A stretch of 30,118 bases of DNA, taken from the NCBI GenBank assembly GCA_041639695.1, contig JBEQBQ010000014.1:1-30118 (forward strand). Direction: 5' to 3'. The translations under genes were made by a program, and so were the position numbers. This document shows positions 767-20,800 of the stretch, piece by piece. The notes beneath the pieces were generated by a model, which worked only from the letters and a program-made list of their open reading frames with translations, made no database searches and was not told where the DNA came from. How positions within the stretch are numbered: position 1 is the first letter of the stretch; the number at the start of each line of letters is the position of its first letter. This DNA is from Candidatus Nanohaloarchaea archaeon (lineage in GTDB: Archaea; Nanohalarchaeota; Nanosalinia; Nanosalinales; Nanosalinaceae).

Positions 767-1336
767 TTACTGATTTTCCTGATACTCTTCAACTGCTTCT
801 TCTAACATTTGCTTATTTTCTTCAAACAAATCATCAGCATTTTTCTTTGATTCTGCTCTTTGAGATTCATAGTTAACTAGATTCAATAAGCCCTGTGAAT
901 CTTCGTCCCCCATCAGTGCTTCAGCATAGTTGTCCGATCTTTGTTCTGATGAAAAAATGACATCGTGAATGGCACCATCACTTTGCTCGTAGATAGTGGC
1001 TATTGAATCCACAACAGCTCTACCCACACTTCTCCATTTATCTAGGGAATTATCTTGTGCATTCTCAACAGCGTTTGCGAAATGGACTGCGCCTCCATAT
1101 ACTGCTGAAGCTCCGTCTACTAGGCTGTGTTCTCCTTCTCCCTCAGCAACATCGTTCGCCATCTCATATAGTCTTTCAACATCCTCTATCTCGACACCCG
1201 GAGTCATGTCCGAGCCAAATTTCACAGTATCAAATCCGTACTCGAAGTGACCTTCGGTTTTCTCGGAAACTCCTGCGCCTTGTTCCAAAGCCTCATCAAG
1301 ATGTTGTTCGACCGTTTGTTGAAGTTCGTCTTTCAT
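767..1336 (-). CDS. Hypothetical acidic, probably all-alpha protein (189 aa)
   Basis: ATG start, acidic composition like the rest of the proteome, TTTATAA about 25 nt upstream (1360-1366), U-rich terminator downstream. No recognisable family motif. Confidence 0.75.
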   Translation of the reverse strand: MKDELQQTVEQHLDEALEQGAGVSEKTEGHFEYGFDTVKFGSDMTPGVEIEDVERLYEMANDVAEGEGEHSLVDGASAVYGGAVHFANAVENAQDNSLDKWRSVGRAVVDSIATIYEQSDGAIHDVIFSSEQRSDNYAEALMGDEDSQGLLNLVNYESQRAESKKNADDLFEENKQMLEEAVEEYQENQ

Positions 1337-1463
1337 ATGTAGTTATTTAAATCGAATACTTATAAATGTTACTGTGTAGTAGTTACACTTTTTTGTTGGA
1401 TTTAGGGATCCATCAACATTAACTTAACTTCTAAAACTAGAATCTATACGTGATCCACGAATG

Positions 1464-1478
1464 AAGGGTGGACGTTTT
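1464..1478 (+). promoter_or_regulatory. Copy 1 of the conserved AGGGTGGACG motif (upstream of serS)
   Basis: AAGGGTGGACGTTTT is the exact reverse complement of 3653-3667; the 10-nt core recurs at 10626-10635. Confidence 0.55.
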
Positions 1479-1546
1479 TCCAACAAAAGGTAGAATCGAA
1501 GCTGTAAAACCTGTTCTAGAAAAAGCTTTCTTCACAAGTGGTCTGT

Positions 1547-2815
1547 ATGCTTGATATCGAACTTTTCCGAAATAATCCCGAGAAGATTAAGGAGTCGGAG
1601 AAACGCCGCGATAAAGAACCGTCAAAGGTAGATGAGGTTGTAAAGACTGATGAAGAGTGGCGTGAAAAGCTCCAGAAACTCGATAAGCTAAGGCAGGAAA
1701 GAAATATCGTAGGCGATGAAATAGCTTCGCTTAAACAAGAGGGTGAGGACGCTTCCGACAAGATCGAAAGAATGCAGGAAGTGAAAGAGAAGATATCGGA
1801 ATTGGAGGAAGAAGTTGAAGAGCTCAAAGAGAAAAGAGACGAACTGAGATACGAGATAGGTAATATCCTCCACGAATCAGTTCCTAAAGGAATGGACGAA
1901 GAAGATAACGTAGAGGAGAAGACTTGGGTGCCCGAGAACGGAAAGGACGAGGATTCCAGGCTGGCAGCCGATATAATCGAAGAAAATGATTTAGTTGAGA
2001 CAGAAAAAGCTGCAGAACTGGCAGGAGAAAGAGCTTACTACCTGAAAAAAGACTTGTTCCGTTTGAACCAGGCCTTGATCCAGTTCTCGATGGACCTTTT
2101 GAGCGAAAAAGGTTTTACACCGATGCAGACACCTTACATGCTGAAGCACGAGCCTATGGCAGCGGCAGCAGAACTTGAGGACTTTGAGGAACAGCTATAC
2201 AAGATAGAAGATGAGGACAAGTACCTTATCGCGACCTCGGAACAGACTCTAGCCACATTCCACAAGGACGAGATCATGCTTCCGGACGAGTTCCCGAAAA
2301 AGTACGCCGGTTTCTCGACCAACTTCAGGCAGGAAGCCGGCAAACACGGCGAACAGACTCGAGGAATCTGGAGAGTCCACCAGTTCGAAAAAGTGGAGCA
2401 GTACATCTTCTGCAAACCAGAAAACTCATGGGAACTACACGAAGAACTTCTGGATAATGCAGAAGAGGTTATGCAGAAACTAGAGCTGCCTTACCGCGTT
2501 GTAAACGTTTGTACGGGCGACATGAACGACAACGCTGCGAAGAAGTACGATATCGAGGTATGGAGACCTCCAATTGGCGAGTACGGAGAAGTTGTTTCGT
2601 GCTCGAACTGCACCGACTTCCAGGCAAGAAAGGTGAGTGTCAGAATCCGTGGAAGCGATGAGAACTACGTAGCGCACACGTTGAACGCTACAGCGGTCGC
2701 AACCTCCAGGATCATGACCGCAATTATAGAAAACAATCAGGAAGAAAAAGGAATACGGATCCCTGAACCGCTCCAGAACTATATGGGCGGCCAAGAGTAC
2801 ATCGAGACCGTTTAA
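1547..2815 (+). CDS. serS: Seryl-tRNA synthetase (type 1)
   Basis: MLDIELFR N-terminus with coiled-coil arm, LIATSEQ, motif 2 FRQEAGKHG...RGIWRVHQFEKVEQ, KKYDIE, EVVSCSNCTDFQAR, HTLNATAVATSR. ATG at 1547 preferred over GTG at 1538. Confidence 0.97.
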   Translation: MLDIELFRNNPEKIKESEKRRDKEPSKVDEVVKTDEEWREKLQKLDKLRQERNIVGDEIASLKQEGEDASDKIERMQEVKEKISELEEEVEELKEKRDELRYEIGNILHESVPKGMDEEDNVEEKTWVPENGKDEDSRLAADIIEENDLVETEKAAELAGERAYYLKKDLFRLNQALIQFSMDLLSEKGFTPMQTPYMLKHEPMAAAAELEDFEEQLYKIEDEDKYLIATSEQTLATFHKDEIMLPDEFPKKYAGFSTNFRQEAGKHGEQTRGIWRVHQFEKVEQYIFCKPENSWELHEELLDNAEEVMQKLELPYRVVNVCTGDMNDNAAKKYDIEVWRPPIGEYGEVVSCSNCTDFQARKVSVRIRGSDENYVAHTLNATAVATSRIMTAIIENNQEEKGIRIPEPLQNYMGGQEYIETV

Positions 2816-3126
2816 GCACTGTGGGAAACTTCTCCCACTCTGCAATCCTCTTCTATATCTTCTTTACCGCAGTTTTCATTTTCAGGGGCCGAAAGCAACG
2901 CCATCAGCTGCGTATCCCTCAAACCTTCTCCGTTTGAATTATCTAGGGCGTTCAGCACATCTTCTCTTAGATCAATCTCCTCGTAGTGGCTAGTGTAAAA
3001 ACCTTTCAGCTCCTCCATCTCTTCTGCGGTATACTGGCCGCTCTGATACAGCTTTTGGCTGAACTCTTCATAGGTTTCTATGTTAGAGATGTGATCCGCC
3101 ATCCTGACGTATCTGCTTCGTTCCAA
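2812..3126 (-). CDS. Hypothetical acidic protein (start uncertain: TTG 3126 or ATG 3102)
   Basis: Acidic ORF 14 nt downstream of 3141..3434; stop overlaps the serS stop. Confidence 0.6.
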   Translation of the reverse strand: MERSRYVRMADHISNIETYEEFSQKLYQSGQYTAEEMEELKGFYTSHYEEIDLREDVLNALDNSNGEGLRDTQLMALLSAPENENCGKEDIEEDCRVGEVSHSA

Positions 3127-3140
3127 AGACTTAAAACAGG

Positions 3141-3434
3141 TTAGTTGCCCTCCCCGAAAGCTTCTAACGGTAGCTCGGAATCACTGAGATAGTCAAATGC
3201 CTGTTCATAGCTGTGGCCTCCGTCAGCCATAGGCTCCAATCCTTCAGCCTCCTGCAAACTTTCTGACTGGAAGCCATCAAGCCCAAGCTGTGCAAAGTAA
3301 TCAATACCCAGATGTTCAGGCTCATAAGACAGTTCTTCTGCCGGACTTTCTTCCATACCTGTTTGTGTATAGATCTCGGGGTCTTGGACCTCCGGAACTT
3401 CCGGATCTCGGCCTATATTCGGACAGTGATCCAT
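3141..3434 (-). CDS. Hypothetical acidic protein with ADGG motif (97 aa)
   Basis: GGAGGT Shine-Dalgarno upstream, TAATG coupling to the upstream micro-ORF, very acidic. Confidence 0.7.
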   Translation of the reverse strand: MDHCPNIGRDPEVPEVQDPEIYTQTGMEESPAEELSYEPEHLGIDYFAQLGLDGFQSESLQEAEGLEPMADGGHSYEQAFDYLSDSELPLEAFGEGN

Positions 3435-3508
3435 TATCTCTGACCTCCATTCGCTATCTTTGATTTTGCGGTGCGGTATAACGTTGTTGTGTGTTGTTGT
3501 ATTGTCAT
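3434..3508 (-). CDS. Putative leader peptide MTIQQHTTTLYRTAKSKIANGGQR (24 aa)
   Basis: Hand translation. GAGGT upstream, stop overlaps the next start (TAATG), positional paralog at 10353..10430. Confidence 0.55.
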   Translation of the reverse strand: MTIQQHTTTLYRTAKSKIANGGQR

Positions 3509-3540
3509 ATCGAGTTCGACCTCGAAAAGAGAATCAGGGT

Positions 3541-3663
3541 TTAATGCAGCACTGCCACAATCACTGCGGCAGCGGAAAACGAAAGTTTAATTGAATGTTT
3601 AACTGAAAGTTCGTGAGAAAAACTATAGCAGAACCTCTGAGGATTTAAACACAAAACGTCCAC
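3541..3663 (-). CDS. Putative micro-ORF (GTG) MDVLCLNPQRFCYSFSHELSVKHSIKLSFSAAAVIVAVLH (40 aa)
   Basis: Starts inside the AGG-GTG-GAC motif; shares V1, D2, C5, F15, S16, S20, K22, S24 ungapped with 10495..10632; hydrophobic tail. Confidence 0.45.
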   Translation of the reverse strand: MDVLCLNPQRFCYSFSHELSVKHSIKLSFSAAAVIVAVLH

Positions 3664-3699
3664 CCTTAGTTCTGCTCATAGCCCGCTTTTTGAAGCCGA

Positions 3700-3710
3700 G
3701 ATTTAAAAAT
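3700..3710 (-). promoter_or_regulatory. TATA box for cassette A
   Basis: TTTTTAAAT on the minus strand about 25 nt upstream of the ATG at 3679. Confidence 0.45.
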
Positions 3711-3744
3711 TAATCGTTGAGAAGGAGTGAAGAAAAGAGGGTTT

Positions 3745-4026
3745 TTAGCCCTGGAAGCCATAGTCTGTAGGATCCTTTACCACAGGATTGTCTTCTTCGT
3801 CATATGGGACTTCTCCTACTAAATCTCCATCACTTTCTTCTTCCCGACTATCCAAAACGCCATCAACTGTTCCTAGAGGCGAATCGTCTTCTGAATCAAC
3901 CAGCGTTGGAATAACATCATCATATTCTGTTTCGTCTTCGTATTCTTCAGTGTCTGCCTCCGGATCAACGAACATAGGAATCACAGGATCATAATCCTCC
4001 AGCCTTGCATCCTCATCGATCCTCAT
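3745..4026 (-). CDS. Hypothetical hyperacidic protein with internal repeat (93 aa)
   Basis: GAGGTG SD upstream; repeat YDPVIPMFVDPEAD / YDDVIPTLVDSEDD; pyrimidine-rich terminator at 3720-3744. Confidence 0.7.
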   Translation of the reverse strand: MRIDEDARLEDYDPVIPMFVDPEADTEEYEDETEYDDVIPTLVDSEDDSPLGTVDGVLDSREEESDGDLVGEVPYDEEDNPVVKDPTDYGFQG

Positions 4027-4094
4027 CTTTCCACCTCGAGTGTTTTTCCGGTTTTCGAATTTGTATTGATAGCCTCGTCTACTTCTAGGGCCAT
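4023..4094 (-). CDS. Putative leaderless micro-ORF MALEVDEAINTNSKTGKTLEVER (23 aa)
   Basis: TTATAAA (4119-4125) about 25 nt upstream of the ATG; ATGA overlap with 3745..4026; contains the SD for that gene. Confidence 0.55.
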   Translation of the reverse strand: MALEVDEAINTNSKTGKTLEVER

Positions 4095-4208
4095 AACAAA
4101 AGTCTTAATGTAACAGTCTTTATAAGGGATTTGGCTTTTTTGTCACGGCGTATCGACATATCCCGGAATAGTGTTTGATTTAAGTGAGTTTAGTCATGAA
4201 GGAAGGGT

Positions 4209-6257
4209 ATGGAAACAACGGTCATGGTCGGGGAGAAGCCCAAAGTCGCCTCCCGGATCGCCAACGCCCTCGGAAACTACGACACACAGACAAACCGAGG
4301 CGTCAAGAACTACGTGATAAAGACCGATGAAAGAAAGATTATAATCGCACCAGCCGTAGGACACATATTCAACCTTGACCAGATCGCCGACAACTGGGAC
4401 TACCCTGTATTCGACGTAGAATGGAAGCCCACCTTTGAGACTTCTGATTCCGCCGACTACATGAAGAAATACTACAACAACCTGAAAGACCAGCTGGAAA
4501 AAGCCGACACATACATTAACGCATGCGACTTCGATCTTGAAGGTTCTGTTATCGGATACAACGTTATCAAGCATCTTACAGACGCGGATGAAGAAAGAAT
4601 CGAGCGCATGAAGTTCTCTACACTGACTCCTTCCGACCTACAGGAAGCATTTGATAATCTAGAGGATTTCGATGCAGGGATGACAGAGGCCGGCATAACA
4701 AGACACATTCTTGACTATTACTACGGTATCAACGTTTCCCGTGCCTTGATGAAAGCCGTAAGGGACAACGACCGTTACAAGACTCTTTCTACAGGACGTG
4801 TTCAGGGTCCGACACTCAAGATTCTGGCTGACAGGGAGAAAGAGATCCAAGAGTTTGAACCGGATCCTTACTGGGAGCTTTACCTAAAACATGCGGAGTT
4901 TGACGCACAATGGGAGGAAGACGAGGACCGTATCTGGGACCAAGAAAAAGCCAACGACAAGTTCAACAAGGTCTACGGGGAGACAGAAGCAGAAGTCACG
5001 AACGTCAAAGTAAACAACTATACGCACAAGCCTCCGATCCCATTCAACCTGACAGGACTGCAGAGCGAGGCATCCTCACAGTTCCGTATAAGCCCGAAAA
5101 AGACACAATCTATTGCACAGACTTTGTACGAAAACGGCCTAATTTCTTATCCAAGAACCGAGTCACAGAAACTGCCGCCCAAGATCGGATACAAGAATAT
5201 TCTGAACAAGTTGAAAGGCCAAGAAAGTTATGATGATCTCGCGAAAAAAGTACTGAAGAAAGATAAAAACGATAACCTTTACACAACACAGGGAAGCAAG
5301 GAGGACGACGCACACCCTGCAATCTACCCTACAGGGGAGTCTCCGGGCGGAAAGCTTTCAAAGCAGGAGAAAAAGGTCTACGACCTGATTGTAAAGCGTT
5401 TCTTCGCTGTGTTCGGCAAACCGGCGAAAAGACAGTCCCTCACATTTACTTTAGACGTCAAAGACGAAGAATTTAAGGCCAAATCCAAAGTAACGAAGAA
5501 GAGGAACTGGTACGATCTCTACGACCCATACGTCAAAGTAGACTCAGCCGATCTTCCTGACATGGAGGAAGGCCAGACTCTTGATGTAGAGGACTTCGAA
5601 CTTGTTGATAAAGAAACTCAGCCACCTAACCGTTACAGCCAGTCAAAGATTGTCAACGAGCTTGAGAAAAGAGAACTAGGTACAAAAGCGACACGTGCCG
5701 ATACCGTAGACCGCCTTTACGACAGGAACTACATCGAAGAAGAACCTATCGAAGTAACTGATCTTGGTCTTGCAATTGTAAATACCTTAGAGGATTACTG
5801 TGGCAACATCGTCTCCGAGGAGCTTACACGTGAGTTCGAAGAGAAGATGCAGGAGATAAGAGAGCAGAAAAACACGAAAGAAGAAGTTCTGGAAGAGGCA
5901 AGGAACGAGCTAGGAGATATACTCGAGAAGTTCAAGGAGAAACAGAAACAGATTGGCTCAGAGCTTGTCGACACAATCGACTCCGAAAGAGAACGCAGAA
6001 GAAGACTAGGACCTTGTAACGTTGAAGACTGCGATGGAACTTTGAAGATGATTAAAGCAAACGGCTCAAATTTTGTGGGTTGTTCTAACTACCCTGACTG
6101 CGAAAACACATACCCCCTACCGAACAACGGCGATATCAAGTCCACGAACGAGATCTGCGAGGAATGTGGCACACCGAAGATCTTTGTAAGCAGAAAGAAA
6201 GGAAAAGATTATACGATGTGTATCGACCCGGACTGCCCTACAAAGGATGATTGGTAG
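4209..6257 (+). CDS. topA: DNA topoisomerase I (type IA) with C-terminal zinc ribbons
   Basis: Toprim EKP...GHI...ACDFDLEG, STGRVQGPTL, catalytic ISYPRTES, DAHPAIYPT, LGTKATRA, C-terminal Cys ribbons (FVGCSNYPDC, CEECG...CIDPDC). Confidence 0.97.
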   Translation: METTVMVGEKPKVASRIANALGNYDTQTNRGVKNYVIKTDERKIIIAPAVGHIFNLDQIADNWDYPVFDVEWKPTFETSDSADYMKKYYNNLKDQLEKADTYINACDFDLEGSVIGYNVIKHLTDADEERIERMKFSTLTPSDLQEAFDNLEDFDAGMTEAGITRHILDYYYGINVSRALMKAVRDNDRYKTLSTGRVQGPTLKILADREKEIQEFEPDPYWELYLKHAEFDAQWEEDEDRIWDQEKANDKFNKVYGETEAEVTNVKVNNYTHKPPIPFNLTGLQSEASSQFRISPKKTQSIAQTLYENGLISYPRTESQKLPPKIGYKNILNKLKGQESYDDLAKKVLKKDKNDNLYTTQGSKEDDAHPAIYPTGESPGGKLSKQEKKVYDLIVKRFFAVFGKPAKRQSLTFTLDVKDEEFKAKSKVTKKRNWYDLYDPYVKVDSADLPDMEEGQTLDVEDFELVDKETQPPNRYSQSKIVNELEKRELGTKATRADTVDRLYDRNYIEEEPIEVTDLGLAIVNTLEDYCGNIVSEELTREFEEKMQEIREQKNTKEEVLEEARNELGDILEKFKEKQKQIGSELVDTIDSERERRRRLGPCNVEDCDGTLKMIKANGSNFVGCSNYPDCENTYPLPNNGDIKSTNEICEECGTPKIFVSRKKGKDYTMCIDPDCPTKDDW

Positions 6258-6266
6258 AACTAGCCC

Positions 6267-7121
6267 CTAACGCACTTCATCACTTAGATGTTCTATAACC
6301 AAGTCTGTTCTTTCTTGGGCGCCTTCAAGATCGAATTCTTCACCCAGTTCCTCAAACTTTTCCGCGAACGCATCCTCATCTCCAATAATTTCCTGTATTT
6401 CTTCTGCCGACTCTTTGAAACGTTCACGTACCTTCTCATTCTCTGGATTTTCTGCCTGTATAGAGCCATAGAGCCCGGGTTTCTGGTTGAGCATTCTTGC
6501 TGTTAAGTCCGTTATCAACTGGTATACCGGGGAACTGTATTCGGACATTTCCGAGCCCGACATATCGGATTTCCGGATTGTTTCAGCAACCACAAGTTCG
6601 GAGAAGTGCATCAAACCTTGAACAAGGCTCATGGCTTTGTCGTGGGACTCGGGATCAGTAACATGGATGTGCGCATCGTTTCTATTCCAGAACTCCTCCA
6701 TCGCCGTCCACTTCTTACCGTTTACAGGTGTTAAAACAATTTTCTGGCCTTCAACCGAGTTCGAAGGTGCGTACATAGGATGCATTCCAAGCACTTCATC
6801 CGAGTACTGTTTCATGGCCTCTGTCGGCTTCTTCTTAACGCTAGTAATATCACATAGCAAGGCATCATCCTCAATATGCGGCCCGATCTCCTCGATAACA
6901 TCAACAGTTACTGCAATAGGTACAGCAACGATAACCACATCAGCATCCTTCACTATTTCCGTGTTTTCTCCTGCTTCCCAACCGTGCTTTTCCGCTACTT
7001 TTTCTGCCTCTTCGACTGTTTCTCCGGAGATAACGATTTCGTTGTGTTCTTCCAGCAGTTCTCCGAGGTACTGTCCGAACTGTCCTGTACCGCCGACTAT
7101 AGCGATTTTTTCGTCTATCAT
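6267..7121 (-). CDS. tyrA: Prephenate/arogenate dehydrogenase
   Basis: Rossmann KIAIVGGTGQFG, DITSVK, GMHPMYAP, HDKAMSLVQGLMH. ATG at 7121 overlaps the upstream stop (ATGA). Confidence 0.92.
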   Translation of the reverse strand: MIDEKIAIVGGTGQFGQYLGELLEEHNEIVISGETVEEAEKVAEKHGWEAGENTEIVKDADVVIVAVPIAVTVDVIEEIGPHIEDDALLCDITSVKKKPTEAMKQYSDEVLGMHPMYAPSNSVEGQKIVLTPVNGKKWTAMEEFWNRNDAHIHVTDPESHDKAMSLVQGLMHFSELVVAETIRKSDMSGSEMSEYSSPVYQLITDLTARMLNQKPGLYGSIQAENPENEKVRERFKESAEEIQEIIGDEDAFAEKFEELGEEFDLEGAQERTDLVIEHLSDEVR

Positions 7122-8230
7122 AGTTTTTCCTCCAGGATATCGAACGCTCGGTCGATTTCTTCTTTCGTAGTTGATCCAAAGCAAATCCTGACGTTTTGGT
7201 CACTTTCCGGCCCCATCGGCTCTCCGGGAACCATGGCAACACCCTCCTCAATCATTTCAAGGCAGAAATCCCAGGAATCTTCCTCAACCTTCGGGAATGC
7301 ATAGATTGCGCCTTCAGGGGCCTGGAAATCCCATCCAAGTTCGTTCATTCTTTCGACAAGCAGATCTCTTCTTTCCTCGTAAACCTGCCGCATTTCTTCG
7401 ACGTGAGAATCATTTTGAAGTGCTTCGAGAGCCGCTATTTGAGAAGGTTTAGGTGGACAGGCGGTTGCTCCTCTTGCCACCTTTGCAAAGTTCTCAATAT
7501 CGTTTTCTTTAGCTACTACCCAGCCGATTCTCCAGCCTGTCATCGCATGATTTTTGGAGACGGATCCGATAACGACAGAGTTTTCACAGTACGCTGCCGG
7601 CGAATAATGAGCCTTTCCATAAGTTAAGCGATGGTATACCTCATCTGAGAGAAGCATCACATCATTTTCTTCACAGAATTCGCCGATGTTCTTGGCTTGC
7701 TGTTCTGTTAGCATTCTGCCTGTTGGGTTCGAAGGCGTGTTTATCACGACAAGCTCTGCATCTTTCATTTCCTGTTTGGCTTCGTCTCTAAGTTTTGCGC
7801 CGTCAAAGTATTCTACTTGTGTCCACTGGTTGCCGTTAACCTCCGACATCAGTTTGTATGGCCCCCAGCAAGGATCGTTGAAGACCGCTTTCTTTTCTTC
7901 GTCAAGCATCGCTGCGAAGACAGAATAGATCGCTCCCATGCCGCCTGTGCCGACCATTACGTTCTCCTTCGAAAGTTCTACTCCTTTCGGCCCTGTCTCA
8001 GGCTTCAGTTTTTCTTCCTCAACTATAGCCTCTCTCAGCTCTTCAATCCCTGTAACCGCTGTATATCCCTGTTTCTGTTCTAGTATCCCGTCTGCCGCGG
8101 CCTCTTTGACATGTTCTGGTGTATCGAAGCTGGGCTGTCCGATGTCAAAACGGACGCATTCTTCCTGTTCTCTGGCTTTTTCCGAAATCTTCCTGATCGA
8201 AAGCTCTATGTTCTGAATTCTTTCACGCAT
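7118..8230 (-). CDS. PLP-dependent class I/II aminotransferase, probably the aromatic aminotransferase given its context
   Basis: IGQPSFDTP, NTPSNPTG, SDEVY, SVSKNHAMTGWRIG (PLP lysine), PEGAIYAF. ATG at 8230 overlaps the pheA stop. Confidence 0.9.
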   Translation of the reverse strand: MRERIQNIELSIRKISEKAREQEECVRFDIGQPSFDTPEHVKEAAADGILEQKQGYTAVTGIEELREAIVEEEKLKPETGPKGVELSKENVMVGTGGMGAIYSVFAAMLDEEKKAVFNDPCWGPYKLMSEVNGNQWTQVEYFDGAKLRDEAKQEMKDAELVVINTPSNPTGRMLTEQQAKNIGEFCEENDVMLLSDEVYHRLTYGKAHYSPAAYCENSVVIGSVSKNHAMTGWRIGWVVAKENDIENFAKVARGATACPPKPSQIAALEALQNDSHVEEMRQVYEERRDLLVERMNELGWDFQAPEGAIYAFPKVEEDSWDFCLEMIEEGVAMVPGEPMGPESDQNVRICFGSTTKEEIDRAFDILEEKL

Positions 8231-8999
8231 CTTTACCACCGAATGATCCAAGGACTTTAACCTCGGCGTAAGTTTCCAGACATTTTTTCGTGTTCTCGAA
8301 TTTCTCGGAGTTCTGGTCGGCCTCCGCCTCTATATAGAAGAAGTAGTTTCCAAGACCGTCTTTAGTCGGCCTTGACTGGATGTACGCCAGGTTGATCCCG
8401 TGTCCAGAAAAACAGGACAGCATCGAACCTAGTAGTCCGGGACGGTCCTCTCCCGGTTCTACGATTACAGAGGTTTTAGATCCCTCAGTTTGCTCTCCGT
8501 TAATTATGAAAAACCGTGTTGTATTTGATTCACGGTCCTGAACGCTTTCCTCAAGTATATTTAAATTGTTCAGTTCTGCTGCAAGCCTTGAGCAGATCGC
8601 GGCTTCGCCCTCTTCTATCTCTTCAGCTGCTTTAGCAGTACTAGATGATTCTTTCCTTTCCCACCCATTTTCTTCAATTATCTTTTTTGATTGAGCTAGT
8701 GCCTGCGGGTGCGAACGAACGACCTCAATATTATCCATTTTGTTTTCTTTAGAGGTCAGGACATGATCTATCTCTACTTTTACTTGTCCTGTAACATTCA
8801 CATCTTTCTCTCTCAATAGATCGATAGACTCAGTTACTCCGCCGCCGAGAGAGTTTTCAAAAGGTATAACTGCAGCTTCCGCCTTCGATTCAACCGCCTC
8901 AGTTATAGTTGAGACAGGCAGAGGTTCGTATTCTGAGAAGTATTTTTCCGCGGCCTGATGAGTGTACGTGCCTTCAGGGCCCAGGAAAGCAACCTTCAT
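8223..8999 (-). CDS. pheA: Prephenate dehydratase with C-terminal ACT domain
   Basis: VAFLGPEGTYTHQAA, PFENSLGG, SHPQALAQ, NTTRF, ACT DRPGLL...INLAYIQSRP. Confidence 0.95.
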   Translation of the reverse strand: MKVAFLGPEGTYTHQAAEKYFSEYEPLPVSTITEAVESKAEAAVIPFENSLGGGVTESIDLLREKDVNVTGQVKVEIDHVLTSKENKMDNIEVVRSHPQALAQSKKIIEENGWERKESSSTAKAAEEIEEGEAAICSRLAAELNNLNILEESVQDRESNTTRFFIINGEQTEGSKTSVIVEPGEDRPGLLGSMLSCFSGHGINLAYIQSRPTKDGLGNYFFYIEAEADQNSEKFENTKKCLETYAEVKVLGSFGGKDA

Positions 9000-9268
9000 T
9001 ATTTTTTGTCCTCTTTCTGGAGCTGGACAGCTGTTTCTATAAGGAGTTCAGCTAGTTCACGGCCTTTTTCTCGCGGAAGATCTTCTTTGTCGAACAGTTT
9101 CTCGAACTGGTCTTTAACCACTTCTTCACGTCCTTCATCTTTGATTTCCATGCCGTTCTGTTTCTTGTATTCGCCGATCTCCTCCACAACGTTCATCCTT
9201 CGGGAGACTGCGTCAACAATCTCGGCGTTGACCCTGTCGATCTCCTTACGGTAGTCCTCGAGATCCAT
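8999..9268 (-). CDS. Chorismate mutase type II (AroQ class)
   Basis: LEDYRKEIDRVNAEIV...RRMNVVEEIGEYKK...DEGREEVV pattern; TAATG coupling to pheA; TTTATAAA at 9293-9300 about 25 nt upstream. Confidence 0.92.
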   Translation of the reverse strand: MDLEDYRKEIDRVNAEIVDAVSRRMNVVEEIGEYKKQNGMEIKDEGREEVVKDQFEKLFDKEDLPREKGRELAELLIETAVQLQKEDKK

Positions 9269-9308
9269 GTAACTGAATCACTCTTGAAGTGTTTTATAAA
9301 TGGCGGAT

Positions 9309-9896
9309 TCAGGGCGTTGTAAACCGCCCCATGTAAGAGTCCCTGTTTTCAGATTCTACCTCACTTGTCTCGACGCTCCGGGAACCATCATAACTAGGGA
9401 ACCCGCCGTCCGCTAAAACTGCTTTTTCAGGCTCCTCAACCTCCGATACGTTCCAGGAAGACTTCTCTCCATACTCTCTGCCGAGCCCCTGTCTTGCTTC
9501 AAAAACTGTATCTCTGACAGCTGAACGTTCTCCTGCAATAACTACATCGCCATCATCAAACTCGAAGACCTCTACATCTCCTTCTGCCGCGTTAACAGCC
9601 TTATCGTACCCGGAGTCAAAGGCTCTCTGATAGCCAAATCTGCCCTGAAAAACTCTGGGAAACGCTGCCCGGAAGCCTTCGATTCCCGCACCCTGGTCGT
9701 AAACTTCCACATCGTCCTCGTACTCTACAACCTTTATCCTGCCGTTGTCGCTGTTGACATGGATATCTCTTCCATCCGCGTCACCGGGATAGTTCCAGGA
9801 GTTCGCTGTTTCAACGATCTCTTCCTCAAACTCTTCAGGCATCTCTATTTCCTTTCCAGCCTCTGTGGGCTGAAAGTCAAATCCTGTCGTAGACAT
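9309..9896 (-). CDS. Hypothetical acidic protein with ADGG motif (195 aa)
   Basis: TAATG coupling to 9896..10351; acidic; KAVLADGGFPSYD near the C-terminus. Confidence 0.75.
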   Translation of the reverse strand: MSTTGFDFQPTEAGKEIEMPEEFEEEIVETANSWNYPGDADGRDIHVNSDNGRIKVVEYEDDVEVYDQGAGIEGFRAAFPRVFQGRFGYQRAFDSGYDKAVNAAEGDVEVFEFDDGDVVIAGERSAVRDTVFEARQGLGREYGEKSSWNVSEVEEPEKAVLADGGFPSYDGSRSVETSEVESENRDSYMGRFTTP

Positions 9897-10351
9897 TACT
9901 CCATCACCGGATAGCCGTCACTTTCATCGAAGCTGTTAGGTTTGTATATTTCGCCGTTGAACCAGCGCTCGATCTGTTTCGACTGCTGAGGATGGACAAC
10001 GCTTTCAACAACATCATCGACAAACTCGGAGGTTTCATCATAGATCCGGTCGACCGCCGACTCTATATCCATCATCTCGTCGGTTCCGAAGGCGTACTCG
10101 CCCGGGATAGGTGCATCGCTGCCTTCGACAAATCTTTCGCCGGGAACTTCTACCGTTTCAAAGAACTCGACGTAGTTCTCTGAAGGTCTCTCTTGTTTGC
10201 CGACCATTTCGTCCCACCAGGTTCGGCGGTTTGAAGGATCAACATCGTAGGGATTTGAAGGATGCCCTTCAATATCCGGTATGTCGGAACGGGCTTTACC
10301 GAAGATTGCTTCTTCAGTAGACGTGGAAGCCTCCTGTCCTTCTCCGTACAT
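9896..10351 (-). CDS. Hypothetical acidic protein (151 aa)
   Basis: GAGAGGGT SD-like site upstream; starts 1 nt after the leader ORF stop; acidic. Confidence 0.75.
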   Translation of the reverse strand: MYGEGQEASTSTEEAIFGKARSDIPDIEGHPSNPYDVDPSNRRTWWDEMVGKQERPSENYVEFFETVEVPGERFVEGSDAPIPGEYAFGTDEMMDIESAVDRIYDETSEFVDDVVESVVHPQQSKQIERWFNGEIYKPNSFDESDGYPVME

Positions 10352-10352
10352 C

Positions 10353-10430
10353 TTACTCTACCCTCTCAAAGACGTTTTGTTCAGATTTTCTGGTCGTGTC
10401 GTGCGTTGTGTGGTGTGTGTTGTGTGTCAT
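10353..10430 (-). CDS. Putative Thr/His-rich leader peptide MTHNTHHTTHDTTRKSEQNVFERVE (25 aa)
   Basis: Hand translation. GTGAT upstream; TAA-G-ATG junction with the next gene; positional paralog of 3434..3508. Confidence 0.55.
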   Translation of the reverse strand: MTHNTHHTTHDTTRKSEQNVFERVE

Positions 10431-10494
10431 GTTGTATCACGAATAGGAAATGGCTTTTTCTCCGGTTTTACCGTGAGAAAAGCTCTTTTGAAGT

Positions 10495-10632
10495 TTACAG
10501 CAGAAGCAGTAGCAGCAGAAGTAGCAGTGAAATTGAAGATAATACGAAGTCAGTAGAAAGCGAAATTTTAGTTGAAAAGGTCTGCGAGAAAGCTGGGGCT
10601 CCGCCTATCTTAACGTTGCAGAACCCGTCCAC
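10495..10632 (-). CDS. Putative micro-ORF (GTG) MDGFCNVKIGGAPAFSQTFSTKISLSTDFVLSSISLLLLLLLLLL (45 aa)
   Basis: Starts in the AGG-GTG-GAC motif; ends in 10 consecutive CTN Leu codons followed by TAA; paralog of 3541..3663. Confidence 0.45.
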   Translation of the reverse strand: MDGFCNVKIGGAPAFSQTFSTKISLSTDFVLSSISLLLLLLLLLL

Positions 10633-10676
10633 CCTGAGTTGCGGACATCATCGTAGTTGGATTTTAAACAACAGAA

Positions 10677-10684
10677 TTTATAAA
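10677..10684 (-). promoter_or_regulatory. TATA box for cassette B
   Basis: TTTATAAA about 26 nt upstream of the ATG at 10651, the same spacing as in cassette A. Confidence 0.5.
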
Positions 10685-10739
10685 CGATATGTCTTTCTCT
10701 GTTCTAGGAACATTAATCGAAATTCAATCAGTTTATTGT

Positions 10740-11429
10740 CTATAATAGCCTATTAGTCTCTGCATCGACAAGACCGTCGTCGGTTATCTTGAAGTCGACC
10801 GATTTTCCTTCAGGCATCGATCGGTGTTTCTCTATCTCCATTCTTCGAATTCCCTGTTCGACCGTTGAAAGCTTCAGTAAACATTTTGACCAGTAACGCG
10901 GAACATCACGTCCAACAAGTTCAAGGTTGTCCTCGTCGAAGGATGTGTAGACCTGGTTCGTTACCAGTATAGGAATTTCTTCTTTGCGTGCAATCTTCGA
11001 TAATTGAGATAGAAGCTTCGAAAGCGTCTGGTTAACTTCCTGTACTTTGTCGCCTGTTGCCTGCAATCGGTAGAGCGATACCAGCGAATCGATCACGATA
11101 ACCTCGGGGTTGTGTTTTTCAACTATTGATTCGAGGGACATTATTGCGTCTACCTGTTCTTCGAACGTAACCGGTTCGTTTACAACTATGTTTTCCAGTG
11201 CTTCATCCGACGCGATCTGTGTAAATCTTTCGGGACTGAATCCTTTCTCTGTATCGATATAAACGGCTTTATCTCCGTTTTCGCAGACGTTTGCTGCTAC
11301 TTGTATGCAGAAGTTGGTTTTTCCTGAGCCGGATTCGCCGAATACGTTGGTGACGATTCCGCGCTCGATCCCCCCTTCTAGGAACGAGTCAATAGGCTCG
11401 CTCCCCGTTTCGAGCCTTTCAACTTTCAC
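10740..11429 (-). CDS. radB: DNA repair and recombination protein RadB
   Basis: Short RecA-family ATPase lacking the RadA N-domain: GESGSGKT, YIDTE, VIDS, VTNQVY and the RadB-specific KHR motif (EKHRS). GTG at 11429 is the likely start. Confidence 0.92.
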   Translation of the reverse strand: MKVERLETGSEPIDSFLEGGIERGIVTNVFGESGSGKTNFCIQVAANVCENGDKAVYIDTEKGFSPERFTQIASDEALENIVVNEPVTFEEQVDAIMSLESIVEKHNPEVIVIDSLVSLYRLQATGDKVQEVNQTLSKLLSQLSKIARKEEIPILVTNQVYTSFDEDNLELVGRDVPRYWSKCLLKLSTVEQGIRRMEIEKHRSMPEGKSVDFKITDDGLVDAETNRLL

Positions 11430-17854: not shown

Positions 17855-20800
17855 ATGAAAGACCGTATTCTAAAGACAGCGCTACTCCTGACAATAGTTT
17901 GTTTTCTCAGCGGTTCAGCTCTAGGCCAAGAGTTAATTGTTGAAGCCGAAACCACGACCATTTCCGGAGATAAATCATACGATGAAGTCCGAGTGATCAA
18001 CGGCGGAACACTTAGGGTTAGAGACTACGATGGCTCGAACTACGGTAAACTCAACCTGGATACAGAATACCTCTATGTCGACTCTACCTCCACAATCAGT
18101 GCCATCGGAAGCGGATACAGGGGAGGAAGCTCTTACTCGAACGGAGAAGGTCCAGGAGGCGGCGAAGAAGACTCTCAATCAGGTACCGTAGGTGCTGAAA
18201 CAGGAGCTGGAGGCGGAGCTTATGGCGGTGACGGCGGTACCGGAAAGTCCTCTGGGGACAACGGCGGCACCAGCTACGGAAAGATTCTTTACCCTACTAA
18301 GATGGGTAGTGGCGGAGGAGCCTATGAGGATATTGTAGGACGAGACGGCGGAGGAGCTATATCAATAAAAGCCGACTCAATTGATCTGAACGGTTCTATC
18401 TCGGCCTCTGGAAGTACAGAAGGCGGAGCGGGGGGAGGTGCAGGAGGATCAATCAGTATAATCTCGGAAAAGTTTTCAGGATCTGGAACTGTTGAGTCAG
18501 ACGGCTCAAACGGGGGAGGCGCCGGTTACGGGAGCGGAGGAGGGGGAGGAGGACGAATACATATCATAGCAGATCAGTTATCTGATCAGCTGAGCTACTC
18601 GGTAGCAGGCGGAGGTGGATATCAAAGCGGACAAGCAGGATCTCTCAGAACATACCAGATCAATATCACATTACTTGACAGTTCCGGAACTGCGATATCC
18701 GGTTCAAATGTAGAGTTGAGAGGTTCAAGCAACGGCAACACTCTATGTTCAGGTTCTACCGACGCTAACGGAGATTTACAGTGTTCAATGAACCCCAAAG
18801 ATTTCTCAGGAGAGTACGACATCATCGTCGACGGAACAACCTACGTTTCTAACGAAGACAATCCGAGCATGGATATAACCTTAAACAAAGGGTTAAGAGG
18901 TTCCGGAGACCTGAAAGTCAACCTGGAGGACAGGAAGGGAAACAAGCTAAAGCAGAAAAAAGTAACCGTCTACGAATCAGGCACCAATACTGTTGCCTGC
19001 GAGAAAGAGACACACACTGAAGGATTTATTGAATGCGATCTCGATTCAAGCAACAAATACGACGTTGAGATACATGATTCTACACCTACTACGTCGCTTT
19101 CAGGTAGAATCGAATCTGTTTCTCCTGAAGAGATAACCGTGGAGGAAAACACCGATATTGAACTAGTTGACACCTCCGAAAGTCCTGTTTCAAACCAGCA
19201 AGTAGATGTTTACACTTCGAACAACAATCTTGCCTGCCAAGGTACGACAAACTCTACAGGTCATGTAACCTGTCTTCTACAGGAAGAAAGGCACAGACTG
19301 GAGGTCTCAAGCTCCAATTATTTTGATGTCTCAAAAGATATCAGAAGACCTGATGACACTGAAATCGAACTAAAAGAAAATCCAGCAAATAACTACGATA
19401 CTGTTTGTGGGCAGCAAGGAGACGTAAACATTCAGAGCGACTGTACGATAAGCGCCGGAACTTACAACGTGGAATCCTTCAGCGTTGCTTCAGGAGCAAC
19501 TGTGAAGATGAAAGGAGACCCCTCACAGGACTCAAGCTCCAGCTACGGCGGAGTTAAAATCAACTCAGTGGAACCTATAGACATAGATGGAACACTTAAC
19601 GCAAACAAAGAAGGCTACGCAGGAGGTTACAGGAAAGGTAACAGCCATGATGACGGCTATGGGCCGGGCGGCGGCTATGCTGGCGACCAACAAGGTAGTG
19701 CTGGAGGATATGGAGGTCAGGGCGGAACCCCCAGCACCTCTATAAACGGAGGTCAGACTTATGGGTCGAAAAGCTCCGCTACCCGATTAGGTAGCGGTGG
19801 TGCAAGAACATATGGTCTCGACTATCAAGGAGGATATGGCGGAGGGGGAATATGGCTTACATCAAACAGCAAGGTAACCATCAGCGGTTCAATTAAAGCT
19901 AACGGCGGGCAGGGAAGTGAAGGTTCAGCGGGCTCAGGCGGATCTATCCGGATCGAAGGCCCCCATATTGAAGGCTCAGGAGATCTAGTAGCTAAAGGAG
20001 CTAAAATTATAGAAGACGGAGCTGATAACACGGGAGGCTCAGGTGGCGGAGGTAGAATTGCAGTGTACTCAAAAGACGGCATAAATCCTTTCAATACAAA
20101 TGTGGACGGGGGAGACGAAACAGATAGCTACGATAATGGCGGAGAAACGGGAACTGTATATACTGGCTCAACAGGAAACTACCTAGATATCACTCTGAAT
20201 GGTGACCCCGGAGATATCAGAGTCTACCGAGAAGGCAAATATCTAGATGGATATCCTGACTCTAAGAAACTGTGCGAAATAAGTTTATCGGCCGGTGAAA
20301 CCGGAAGCTGTAGCGTTTCAGGAACTGTTGATATATACACAAATGCCTGGAACGGAAAATGGAAGAAGGTGAAGGATAGTGTATCAGCAACCGGATCCTA
20401 CACCTTAGAAAACAACTTTGATGTAAAGCTTGTTGACTCGGCCTCAAACCCCATAGTTGAAGATGTATTTGTTCGAGAATCTGAATCCGGAAATCTTGTC
20501 TGTGCAGGCGAAACAAGTTCCGGTAATTTAAGCTGCTCACTGGACAGTTCGAAGACGTACGATATCTCAGTCGAGAACCCTAATTGGAGGACCCAATTAG
20601 GCGTGCAGGCTCCAGGAGGAACCACGATAACGAACTACGATAACCTCAACGTTCTCCTATCCGAGGAGCGAGCAGCCCTCAACAGATACCCGGCAGATCT
20701 GAAGGTAGATGTATACAAGACAGACGGAGGTGAAAAAGTCTGCAGCGGGGTTTCGAACTCAATAGGACGTATCTCATGTAGCCTTCCTTCTGCTGATCTT

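Follow-up and report, generated by a model that had tools for sequence, protein, structure and literature searches.

What do tiny open reading frames, stacked behind a shared promoter-like element, do for the genes that follow them? The question arises from two cassettes, A and B, on a 30,118-nucleotide stretch of Candidatus Nanohaloarchaea archaeon DNA (contig JBEQBQ010000014.1, positions 1 to 30,118; hereafter, the window). The original prediction, made from the sequence without database searches, described in both a TATA box, an ATG, a common motif, two micro-ORFs in the same order, and acidic orphan genes. All of these elements were found on the minus strand, in A and in B:

3710-3434, minus strand: cassette A leader
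3701-3710, minus strand: AT-rich, TATA-like box of A, putatively the promoter element of the leader, with the uORF1 ATG about 26 nt downstream
3623-3679, minus strand: sensor uORF1 of A, frame 0 (ATG at 3679-3677), MSRTKGGRF-V-FKSSEVLL, then stop
3671-3657, minus strand: shared motif AACTAAGGGTGGACG of A
3650-3667, minus strand: sensor core AAGGGTGGACGTTTT of A plus the specifier codon GTG (Val)
3541-3663, minus strand: GTG ORF of A, 40 codons, in the +1 frame relative to uORF1 and open from the sensor
3434-3508, minus strand: CA-rich uORF2 of A, 24 codons (MTIQQHTTT...), its TAA overlapping the cargo ATG (TAATG)
3141-3434, minus strand: cargo 1 of A, 97 aa, pI 4.05, ADGGH motif
2812-3102, minus strand: cargo 2 of A, 96 aa from the ATG at 3102
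10684-10353, minus strand: cassette B leader
10677-10684, minus strand: TATA-like box TTTATAAA of B, about 30 nt ahead of the uORF1 ATG
10610-10651, minus strand: sensor uORF1 of B, frame 0 (ATG at 10651-10649), MMSATQGGRV-L-QR, then stop
10640-10626, minus strand: shared motif AACTCAGGGTGGACG of B
10619-10636, minus strand: sensor core CAGGGTGGACGGGTT of B plus the specifier codon CTG (Leu)
10495-10632, minus strand: GTG ORF of B, 45 codons, in the +1 frame
10353-10430, minus strand: CA-rich uORF2 of B, 25 codons (MTHNTHHTTH...), its stop 1 nt ahead of the cargo ATG (TAAGATG)
9896-10351, minus strand: cargo 1 of B, 151 aa, pI 4.06
9309-9896, minus strand: cargo 2 of B, 195 aa, ADGGFPSYDG motif

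The finer claims also stand. The GTG ORFs of 40 and 45 codons end in hydrophobic tails: AAAVIVAVLH in A, a Val-rich run at 3573-3544, and ten Leu codons in B, with the run at 10530-10498. The MT-starting ORFs of 24 and 25 codons are coupled to the cargo as described; each cassette has one ADGG gene (the 97-aa ORF in A, the 195-aa ORF in B); and the micro-ORFs were missing from the ORF list because all fall below its 60-aa limit. The cargo of A and that of B are indeed not obviously homologous, giving no BLASTP cross-hits at E≤1e-3. They are acidic (pI 4.05-4.31), but this is not special in a genome where the median is 4.69 (602 ORFs of at least 200 aa). A profile search assigned no Pfam family to either cargo protein of A or to cargo 1 of B; cargo 2 of B matches acVLRF1 only below threshold (E 9.5e-5, 23.1 bits versus a cut-off of 27.1), has three or four relatives in two large protein searches, and gives a mean AlphaFold2 pLDDT of 45.

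Comparison with a genome of the same genus (G002) separates what is kept from what drifts. The counterpart of uORF1 of A reads MSGIKGGRF-V-LESRKLLL, and the +1 ORF ends in AAAVNVAVLH. uORF2 of A retains its 24 codons and the overlap, and its C-terminal half differs. The box of B is identical in G002; the first ten codons of uORF2 are identical too, and the remainder has diverged and is still open. The cargo proteins have orthologues there: cargo 1 of A (56% identity, with the same leader ahead), cargo 2 of A (76%), and cargo 1 of B (53%). Counterparts of uORF2 also occur in other genera, and in one of these (L047) a relative of cargo 2 of A, with 40% identity, lies behind a Val sensor.

The repeat is not a product of chance. 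The 21-nt block TTCAAYTAAAMTTTCGYTTTC has two matches at up to three mismatches, and none of 100 shuffles has any. The exact AGGGTGGACG occurs three times in the 971-kb genome, all inside the window; at one mismatch the 10-mer is not unusual there (three found versus 1.42 expected; 16 of 100 shuffles have at least three). A and B share a genus-specific block that is absent from other leaders, and are thus true paralogues. The third copy, beyond the coordinates considered originally, precedes a gene of recognizable function, serS (1547-2815), identified through Pfam and NCBIfam. Its core lies at 1464, with AGGGTGGACG at 1465-1474 on the plus strand:

1461-1493, plus strand: third member of the window, a Ser sensor uORF ahead of serS, MKGGRF-S-NKR, then stop
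1468-1554, plus strand: +1-frame ORF of the serS leader, its TGA lying inside ATGCTTGA of the serS start; row L160 is the same-genus orthologue

The repeated leader is also not a private duplication. The exact 15-mer core has 49 occurrences, spread over 26 of the phylum's 70 genomes analyzed (reversed control, 0); allowing one mismatch gives 154 places in 47 genomes (control, 9), and a degenerate pattern matches 53 of the 70, including 46 of the 49 in the window's family. The shared unit is a micro-ORF, M(x0-6)-K-G-G-R-F-X, whose ATG follows a TATA-like box by about 26-31 nt; across 77 leaders, starts of AT-rich octamers peak at -35/-34 from that ATG, placing the box about 31 nt ahead. An in-frame ATG without a stop within 25 codons is found for 164 of 171 sensors (23 and 7 in the other frames). 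N-terminal extensions come as whole codons, and one-mismatch variants of the 15-mer fall mostly at synonymous third positions (AAA, CGC, GGC). No single-mismatch variant touches motif positions 4-7 (GGTG). The fourth codon encodes R, C, Y, H, or D; the GG[RC]V-Leu form of cassette B is also that of Leu sensors in other genomes; and a single ORF may carry two sensors in the same frame, as in KGGRF-I...KGGRV-L. The leaders measure about 80-220 nt. The family is large and, since searches of the literature turned up no account of such leaders, apparently undescribed.

This distribution bears on the suggestion of a small-peptide system. If the micro-ORF peptides acted in trans, or if A and B were merely a local duplication retained by chance, one would point to their paralogy and to the DGG-aromatic motif common to cargo proteins of several complex leaders. 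Such accounts have hardly any probability left, given a family found in 53 genomes. The peptide sequence beyond X varies even among species within a genus, and if every leader made the same KGGRF peptide, amino acids could not be told apart in trans; the peptide reading is disfavored on both grounds.

What the leaders do distinguish is codon X. Scored on the first downstream ORF of at least 200 aa, sensors for six amino acids precede the cognate tRNA ligase in 79 of 80 cases: Ser, serS (20/20); Gly, glyS (18/18); Thr, thrS (16/17, the exception being a 91-aa stub where a contig ends); Val, valS (16/16); Tyr, tyrS (5/5); and Cys, cysS (4/4). Phe sensors precede pheS in 3 of 5; Trp sensors precede trpS (4), trpB (4), trpC (1), trpE (1), and a trpD-type gene (1); and Ile sensors precede ilvA in 3 of 12. 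Sensors for His and Leu complete the set. Conversely, an unbiased serS sample has a K-G-[G/E]-x-x-Ser uORF in 19 of 25 assessable upstream regions. The cargo was originally taken to be lineage-specific; A and B do lack Pfam families, but across the phylum the leader is found mainly ahead of genes for aminoacyl-tRNA ligases and amino-acid biosynthesis. Each copy of the module is specific for an amino acid, and in both cassettes the X codon and the codon run agree on it, Val for A and Leu for B.

The second regularity lies in the reading frames. Relative to the first micro-ORF, the GTG ORF occupies the +1 frame. Among 77 simple leaders, frame 0 terminates 42-158 nt upstream of the gene and so reaches it in none, whereas the +1 frame is open to the gene start in all 77, staying open for 25-65 codons whatever the phase between sensor and gene. 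No +1 stop precedes the start codon by more than 14 nt: 62 leaders have it within 12 nt, 2 have it 13-14 nt upstream, and 13 have it 13-166 nt beyond that codon. Frame +2, as control, gets that far in 10 of 77. Among all sensors, 91 of 167 have a +1 stop directly adjoining an ATG ORF of 60 aa or more, against 10 for +2 and 0 for frame 0; this survey of +1 stops found no such ORF for any of the 3 His or 15 Ile sensors. In the genome to which the window belongs, thrS and glyS have their ATG overlapped by the +1 stop (ATGA in both), serS likewise has an overlap, and the stop lies 2 nt ahead of valS; the +1 ORFs of the first Trp sensor and of a Lys-type sensor end at nothing recognizable.

Complex leaders (A, B, and 21 related) differ from simple ones, which have no codon run, in carrying a run in the +1 frame in 23 of 23. 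The amino acid of the run agrees with X: within the last 12 codons of the +1 ORF, Ile leaders have 52 Ile of 108 codons (Leu 9, Val 7); Leu leaders, 37 Leu of 96 (Ile 11, Val 2); Ile plus Leu double sensors, 24 Ile and 22 Leu of 72; and Val plus Leu double sensors, 9 Val and 7 Leu of 24. In 4 of 8 Leu leaders, no Leu run is seen within those last 12 codons.

Together, these regularities suggest a model that we consider reasonably probable: A and B would be the Val and Leu members of a phylum-wide family of cis-acting amino-acid sensors read by the ribosome, with a +1 shift at the starved codon. The promoter would yield an mRNA beginning at or beside the ATG of the tiny ORF M(x0-6)-[K/Q]-G-G-[R/C/..]-[F/V]-X, X being the codon for the amino acid whose supply the downstream gene serves. 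With matching charged tRNA plentiful, X would be read, frame 0 kept, and translation ended a few codons on, far from the gene. With charged tRNA scarce, the ribosome would pause while UUU (or GUU) occupies the P site and X, in the A site, stays unread. A GGGUGG stretch located 4 nt upstream may pair with the 16S rRNA 3' end (GGAUCACCUCC in 5 of 5 relatives) and thereby aid the shift. In simple leaders (serS at 1464; thrS, glyS, valS, tyrS, and cysS elsewhere), the +1 frame would serve as an open relay; since it ends on or beside the gene's start codon, we propose termination-reinitiation as the way in which the gene comes to be translated. In the two cassettes, the +1 frame would enter a run of codons for the same amino acid, an attenuator-type second check, and a ribosome held there would free the CA-rich uORF2 and the cargo start region. 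The family, its reading frame, the agreement of codon and gene, the open +1 frame with its end points, and the codon runs are observed; the frameshift itself, the direction of regulation, and the part played by rRNA pairing are what we infer here. The originally proposed translational-control module, a uORF relay or attenuator, thus gains support from micro-ORF counterparts in many genera and from the frame and stop-start linkage.

Several observations weigh against this model. Some +1 ORFs end at no recognizable gene, as noted above for His, Ile, the first Trp, and the Lys-type sensors; half of the Leu leaders show no Leu run in their last 12 codons; and in the thermodynamic modeling described below a stalled ribosome unmasks no main start region. 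Perfect re-pairing of tRNA-Phe at +1 is possible only if the first base of X is U or C (Ser, Cys, Trp, Tyr, Phe, His); re-pairing is imperfect for Gly, Val, Thr, and Ile, and Leu sensors use GUU. Moreover, leaders contain a second, conserved promoter-like box, AAAACC plus an AT-rich octamer, centered about 26 nt ahead of the main ATG, which may transcribe the genes independently of the leader.

Could the +1 ORF be entered without a shift? It might start independently at the GTG in GGGTGGA and carry ribosomes to the gene; in A and B it would then work like any attenuator peptide, through its tandem Val or Leu codons, and the frame-0 micro-ORF would merely compete or block. The GTG at motif position +4 is the first possible +1 start in every complex leader, so independent initiation is compatible with the sequence, and the invariance of GGTG could reflect a start codon just as well as pairing with rRNA. 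Behind the second Trp sensor, the +1 ORF of 98 codons may be a real protein with its own start, since weakly similar proteins exist in another genus (31% identity, E 2.6e-4). We nevertheless judge this account unlikely. The only amino-acid-specific element of simple leaders is the frame-0 codon X; in +1, other codons are read. The GTG lies 8 nt upstream of X and would be hidden under a ribosome paused there, so starvation would lower expression, presumably the wrong direction by comparison with bacterial regulation of tRNA ligase and biosynthesis genes. Finally, the GTG lies merely 7-20 nt from the mRNA end, leaving no room for a Shine-Dalgarno-like sequence.

Alternatively, KGGRF might act as a nascent peptide that arrests the ribosome at X, the open +1 frame being a side effect. 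The stall would then exert its effect by way of mRNA structure, by shielding the 5' end from exonucleases, by attenuating transcription, or by relieving promoter occlusion. In favor of this, the motif is conserved as a peptide, and most sensors place the stall site 6-12 codons from the 5' end of the mRNA; several sensor classes have a hairpin immediately after X, and the leaders contain the second promoter-like box. In minimum free energy folds of A and B, the codon-run region pairs with the cargo start region. However, thermodynamic modeling found that a stalled ribosome unmasks no main start region (mean unpaired probability 0.447 in both states, n=77), a side effect fails to explain a +1 frame ending at the start in 77 of 77, and a variable fourth residue is unusual in an arrest peptide. 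This reading is accordingly quite unlikely; the conserved signal is best read as acting at the RNA level.

The sensor-and-shift model has several relatives among known systems. Bacterial T-box leaders likewise precede aminoacyl-tRNA ligase, biosynthesis, and salvage genes, carry one specifier codon, and re-use a single scaffold for many amino acids. This position and the single matching codon, along with GGGUGGA, which we take to resemble part of the T-box sequence, could imply a protein-free RNA that binds uncharged tRNA through the specifier and GGGUGGA, the ORFs being incidental. That is very improbable. Unlike T-boxes, these leaders are archaeal and match no Rfam T-box model; indeed, no Rfam family matched at gathering threshold or E≤1, save a chance miRNA match (E 0.4). 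The in-frame ATG, whole-codon extensions, and synonymous variation all speak for translation, and a specifier in a translated frame is read by the ribosome, not by folded RNA. The specifier is 6 nt from GGUGG, too near for the anticodon and acceptor end of one tRNA, given its shape.

Leader-peptide attenuation (trp, his, ilv, leu, pheST) resembles A, B, and the 21 related leaders in ending a short ORF in codons for the regulated amino acid. Here, in contrast, the run is in the +1 frame of an upstream single-codon sensor, and simple leaders have none. No terminator-antiterminator pair is evident in the leaders; we know of no use of such pairs by archaeal RNA polymerase. In ermC and cat attenuation, a ribosome held in the leader ORF frees a downstream start, and the folds of A and B agree with such an arrangement; the trigger here would be missing charged tRNA rather than an antibiotic, and the modeling of simple leaders gave no support.

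Programmed frameshifting supplies the remaining parallels. The autoregulatory +1 frameshift of bacterial prfB (release factor 2) combines a stretch complementary to the 16S rRNA 3' end, a shift-prone P-site codon a few nucleotides further on, and a slow A-site codon. Antizyme provides a +1 frameshift in eukaryotes (PMC8211752). In both, as the leader sequences suggest here, frame 0 ends early, +1 is productive, and the shift is at once sensor and effector. They differ from the leaders, in which the slow codon is a sense codon that varies with the gene, and the +1 frame would yield, instead of the regulated protein, a relay ORF or codon-run peptide to which a separate gene is coupled. Translation of an overlapping uORF in Caenorhabditis elegans zip-2 is likewise proposed (PMC11831180) to shift +1 into the main frame upon slowed elongation; zip-2 senses general elongation defects and makes a fused protein, in a eukaryote, whereas each archaeal leader would respond to one amino acid.

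The sensor, a frame-0 micro-ORF of the form M(x0-6)-K-G-G-R-F-X in which X is the specifier codon, recurs far outside the window. Its 15-mer in leader A, AAGGGTGGACGTTTT, is present at 100% identity in many genomes (BLAST against 40 relatives). Pattern searches covered the 70 genomes of the order, which make up the entire phylum. The original prediction held that a repeated module should have further copies in this and related genomes, and by these counts copies are indeed conserved phylum-wide.

Pattern searches in 70 genomes
Exact 15-mer: 49 places; 26/70 genomes; reversed control, 0
15-mer with at most 1 mismatch: 154 places; 47/70 genomes; reversed control, 9
Degenerate pattern AARGGTGGMYGYTTT: 174 places; 53/70 genomes (46/49 in the window's family); reversed control, 5

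ATGAARGGTGGACGTTTT matched 54 loci across 185,579 species genomes. About 37 of these are titled Nanohaloarchaea, Nanohalarchaeota, Nanohalobium, Nanosalina, Asbonarchaeaceae, or "uncultured archaeon"; the remainder are scattered bacteria, in about the number expected by chance. The window's own genome holds nine sensors: Ser (serS), Thr (thrS), Gly (glyS), Val (valS), Val (cassette A), Leu (cassette B), two Trp, and one Lys-type. Both Trp sensors sit before a trpS-like gene.

Features of the window
1465-1474, plus strand: third exact copy of AGGGTGGACG, ahead of serS
1500-1546, plus strand: inner promoter-like box
3141-3434, minus strand: cargo ORF of cassette A, with a D-G-G-aromatic motif
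3710-3434, minus strand: leader A (X=Val)
6267-9268, minus strand: chorismate mutase, prephenate dehydratase, aminotransferase, and prephenate dehydrogenase in a row, directly downstream of cassette B
9309-9896, minus strand: B2, the second cargo ORF of cassette B, with a D-G-G-aromatic motif
10684-10353, minus strand: leader B (X=Leu)
17855-28996, plus strand: one ORF of 3713 codons

The identity of X is tied to the gene that follows. The target was taken as the first downstream ORF of at least 200 aa (at least 90 aa where the end of the locus cuts it), named by NCBIfam and Pfam; 172 sensors led to 137 distinct target ORFs, with 22 sensors lacking any. Of the 80 first large ORFs that follow a Ser, Gly, Thr, Val, Tyr, or Cys sensor, 79 are the cognate ligase.

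Specifier codon X and the downstream gene
Ser: serS, 20/20
Gly: glyS, 18/18
Thr: thrS, 16/17; the remaining one is a 91-aa stub
Val: valS, 16/16
Tyr: tyrS, 5/5
Cys: cysS, 4/4
Phe: pheS, 3/5
His: three sensors at a single locus, followed by an ORF of no named family and then hisS
Trp: trpS, 4; trpB, 4; trpC, 1; trpE, 1; trpD-type, 1; M20 deacylases, 4; GNAT, 3; the rest unnamed
Ile: ilvA, 3/12; the others a helicase, an aminotransferase, a prephenate dehydratase, and six unnamed
Leu: 6/8 without a family name

In an unbiased sample of 30 serS loci picked by enzyme rather than by motif, 25 upstream regions could be assessed, and 19 of them contain a K-G-[G/E]-x-x-Ser micro-ORF. Five of the other six, all from family f3, have a different conserved micro-ORF, and one has none.

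Several Trp sensors (L118, L138, L102, L037, L133, L141, and L056 among the fetched loci) stand before a GNAT acetyltransferase paired with an M20 (ArgE/DapE-type) deacylase, not before trp genes; these pairs may represent an amino-acid salvage route. In the window's genome, the Trp sensors lie in tandem at G000:C10:30999-31280 (minus strand). The second continues directly in the +1 frame as a 98-codon acidic ORF (beginning VDVFGK), which overlaps the next ORF by 11 nt and is followed by the trpS-like gene. The Lys-type sensor (G000:C18:2667, minus strand) is a sensor-like micro-ORF, MQGGCF-K-H, ahead of a 246-aa ORF without known family; its +1 ORF stops 59 nt short of that gene.

Start codons, promoters, and substitutions point to frame 0 as the translated one. 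In 31 contexts of the exact motif, an in-frame ATG stands 0-6 codons upstream, and a stop-free in-frame ATG lies within 25 codons of 164/171 fetched sensors, versus 23 and 7 in the other two frames. AT-rich octamers peak with their starts at 35-34 nt before the sensor ATG. Such box-to-ATG spacing is expected for leaderless or near-leaderless mRNA in archaeal promoters, and we infer that sensor mRNAs are probably of this kind. One-mismatch variants of the motif are chiefly synonymous third-position changes (AAG to AAA, CGT to CGC, GGA to GGC); the others are K to Q, R to C, and F to V, and no variant touches positions 4-7, 11, 14, or 15. In some cases, a single ORF contains two in-frame sensors.

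Simple leaders, in which the +1 frame is open to the main gene, separate the frames clearly. In none of 77 simple leaders does frame 0 reach the gene; its stop always falls 42-158 nt short of it. The +1 frame has no stop more than 14 nt before the start codon in any of the 77; it ends within 14 nt of that codon or past it, typically through an ATGA overlap (thrS, glyS, and cysS leaders), ATGCTTGA (serS), or a stop 3-4 nt before the ATG (valS and tyrS). Whatever the relative phase of sensor and gene, the +1 frame is open in this way. Of all 167 sensors that could be assessed, 91 have a frame +1 stop that abuts an ATG ORF of at least 60 aa; the number is 10 for frame +2 and none for frame 0. The GTG-initiated ORF of the original prediction corresponds to the sensor ORF read in frame +1. 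For the main family, a −1 shift was discarded: the gene is reached through frame +2 in just 10/77 simple leaders.

The f3 serS loci (L224, L232, L234, L239, and L249) carry their own conserved leaderless micro-ORF, M-[T/Q]-G-F-[S/Y/C]-R-Q-S, before serS. In 5/5, the +2 (−1) frame is open from the start of the micro-ORF to 4-8 nt beyond the serS ATG, and frames 0 and +1 are closed. This family seems to have a second version of the relay, one that would use the other alternative frame.

A conserved box (AAAACC plus an AT-rich octamer) also lies inside leaders, with the centre of its AT-rich part about 26 nt ahead of the main ATG. In make-up it is similar to the promoter of the leader itself, and it may act as a second promoter, from which the ligase gene would have basal, leaderless expression.

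A frame-0 specifier and a +1 relay would be linked most simply by a +1 shift at the starved codon, with the shifted ribosome relayed into the cognate gene for a tRNA ligase, biosynthesis, or salvage. The general model, to which we give an even chance, is that Nanohaloarchaeota gauge the supply of single amino acids with a portable, codon-programmable switch: a leaderless micro-ORF; a +1 shift at a starved sense codon; and a relay into the cognate gene. It would be a ribosome-based counterpart of the bacterial T-box; in Archaea, no amino-acid-specific cis-regulator and no regulatory frameshift would have been described before it.

The sensor contains GGGUGG 4 nt upstream of a UUU codon, and X follows UUU. 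GGGUGG could form four Watson-Crick and two G-U pairs with the 16S rRNA 3' end GGAUCACCUCC, which is present in 5/5 relatives; this end was not found in the window's own assembly. After a +1 shift, re-pairing (UUU, then U or C) would be perfect for Ser, Cys, Trp, Tyr, Phe, and His, and would involve a wobble mismatch for Gly, Val, Thr, and Ile; Leu sensors have GUU.

Two other ways for a ribosome to act at X were weighed. KGGRF might be an arrest peptide. The spacer codon varies freely (R, C, Y, H, or D), however, which favours an RNA signal over such a peptide. Alternatively, a ribosome stalled at X might unmask the start of the main gene, in the manner of ermC. Modelling of the stalled state in simple leaders (n=77) gave a mean unpaired probability of 0.447 for that start region in both states (Wilcoxon p 0.24), and the ermC-like reading of these leaders was dropped for this reason.

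Cassettes A and B have complex leaders, in which the +1 frame ends in a codon run and a CA-rich uORF2 precedes the cargo. The order of elements described beforehand for the minus strand is present in both. They belong to a set of 23 leaders, drawn from many genera, whose cargo is not a ligase (Ile, Leu, Val, and double sensors) and whose +1 ORF closes with a run of the amino acid or acids that X specifies. Examples are AAAVIVAVLH in A, ten Leu in B, and IISIIGIIAIIG and similar runs in Ile leaders; double sensors have mixed runs (Ile and Leu behind Ile+Leu; Val and Leu behind Val+Leu). The last 12 codons include 3 Val in A and 10 Leu in B. After the run comes a CA-rich ORF that begins with MT or MK and has about 24-29 codons; its stop lies at most 7 nt from the cargo ATG. 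In the same-genus genome G002, the opening codons and the end point of both uORF2s (A and B) are preserved and the C-terminal sequence is not, as should be the case for a coupling ORF. In predicted minimum-free-energy folds of both cassettes, the run region or its flank would pair with the cargo start.

The 21-nt block shared by the two leaders is above chance, with 2 matches in the window and none in any of 100 shuffles. Among 249 fetched loci (664 kb), with at most 4 substitutions allowed, it occurs in A, B, and the B orthologue of G002; two further 4-substitution matches lie at unrelated sites. This confinement indicates that A and B are true paralogues at genus level. The exact AGGGTGGACG has 3 copies in the 971-kb assembly, all within the window.

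The cargo was described beforehand as not obviously homologous between the cassettes, and BLASTP found no cross-hits; no Pfam family was found for the A or B cargo ORFs. Six small ORFs behind sensors in the window's genome have pI values of 4.05-4.36 (genome median, 4.69), and the acidity of the cargo is that of the whole proteome. For B2, a word-indexed search found 3 relatives and an exhaustive search 2, an Atlas search gave no usable match, the AlphaFold2 model has a mean pLDDT of 45, and a sub-threshold acVLRF1 match is a hint only.

Motif inspection found [A/P/T]-D-G-G-[F/H/Y/W] within the C-terminal part of small acidic cargo proteins whose sensors specify Ile, Val, Leu, or Val+Leu: 7 distinct ORFs in 6 genomes, 2 of them the orthologous B2 pair (the two window ORFs listed, and others at L053, L085, L153, and L060). 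Homology of these proteins was not accepted; a six-protein alignment was unconvincing beyond the motif itself. Control of the chorismate mutase and prephenate dehydratase operon by A and B found no support: a TATA-like box of the operon itself stands about 30 nt ahead of its first ATG, and Leu is mismatched to Phe/Tyr synthesis.

Together, these results describe one short scaffold, used for at least 11 amino acids, whose codon identity is tied to the regulated gene throughout a phylum of archaea that depend on hosts and have small genomes. They offer a testable answer to how such symbionts detect which amino acid the host fails to provide, and flag the A and B cargo, together with the M20 deacylase/GNAT pairs that follow Trp sensors, as candidate components of the response to amino-acid starvation. 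Gene callers overlook a layer of functional ORFs that are 10-45 codons long. If the shift is real, it makes a compact switch whose specificity is set by a single codon, useful for synthetic biology.

The likeness to the T-box is one of logic: X matches the amino acid of the regulated gene, as the T-box specifier does. Neither a T-box, whose covariance model comprises Stem I, a specifier loop, and an antiterminator with the T-box sequence, nor any other Rfam family scored at gathering threshold across the whole window, and at E<=1 the sole match over 1300-10800 was a miRNA family (E 0.4). The frame evidence at the sensors argues for probable reading by the ribosome, not for direct binding of uncharged tRNA.

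The prfB frameshift site comprises an rRNA-complementary stretch, a short spacer, and the shift codon, a layout matched in the sensor by GGGUGG, 4 nt, UUU, and X. In both, the complementary stretch lies a few nucleotides before the shift codon, frame 0 ends early, and the productive frame is +1 (for the sensor, in 77 simple leaders), the shift at the sensor itself being putative. Leader-peptide transcription attenuators share with A and B their tandem codons for the regulated amino acid; the simple tRNA-ligase leaders differ, with one codon each. The A and B folds contain hairpins and long-range pairing to the cargo start and no clear terminator, and T-runs are not universal in the leaders.

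Full-text literature searches found no description of the sensor family (the term KGGRF appeared only in two unrelated papers), and no cis-acting single-amino-acid sensor is described for Archaea in the searchable literature. For cellular archaea, a 2021 review lists a single programmed frameshift, of the −1 kind (PMC8211752). A conceptually similar +1 shift from an upstream ORF is described for C. elegans (PMC11831180). The parts are of known kinds (frameshift sensors, leader peptides, and specifier logic); what is new is how they are combined, the domain of life that hosts them, and their modular use.
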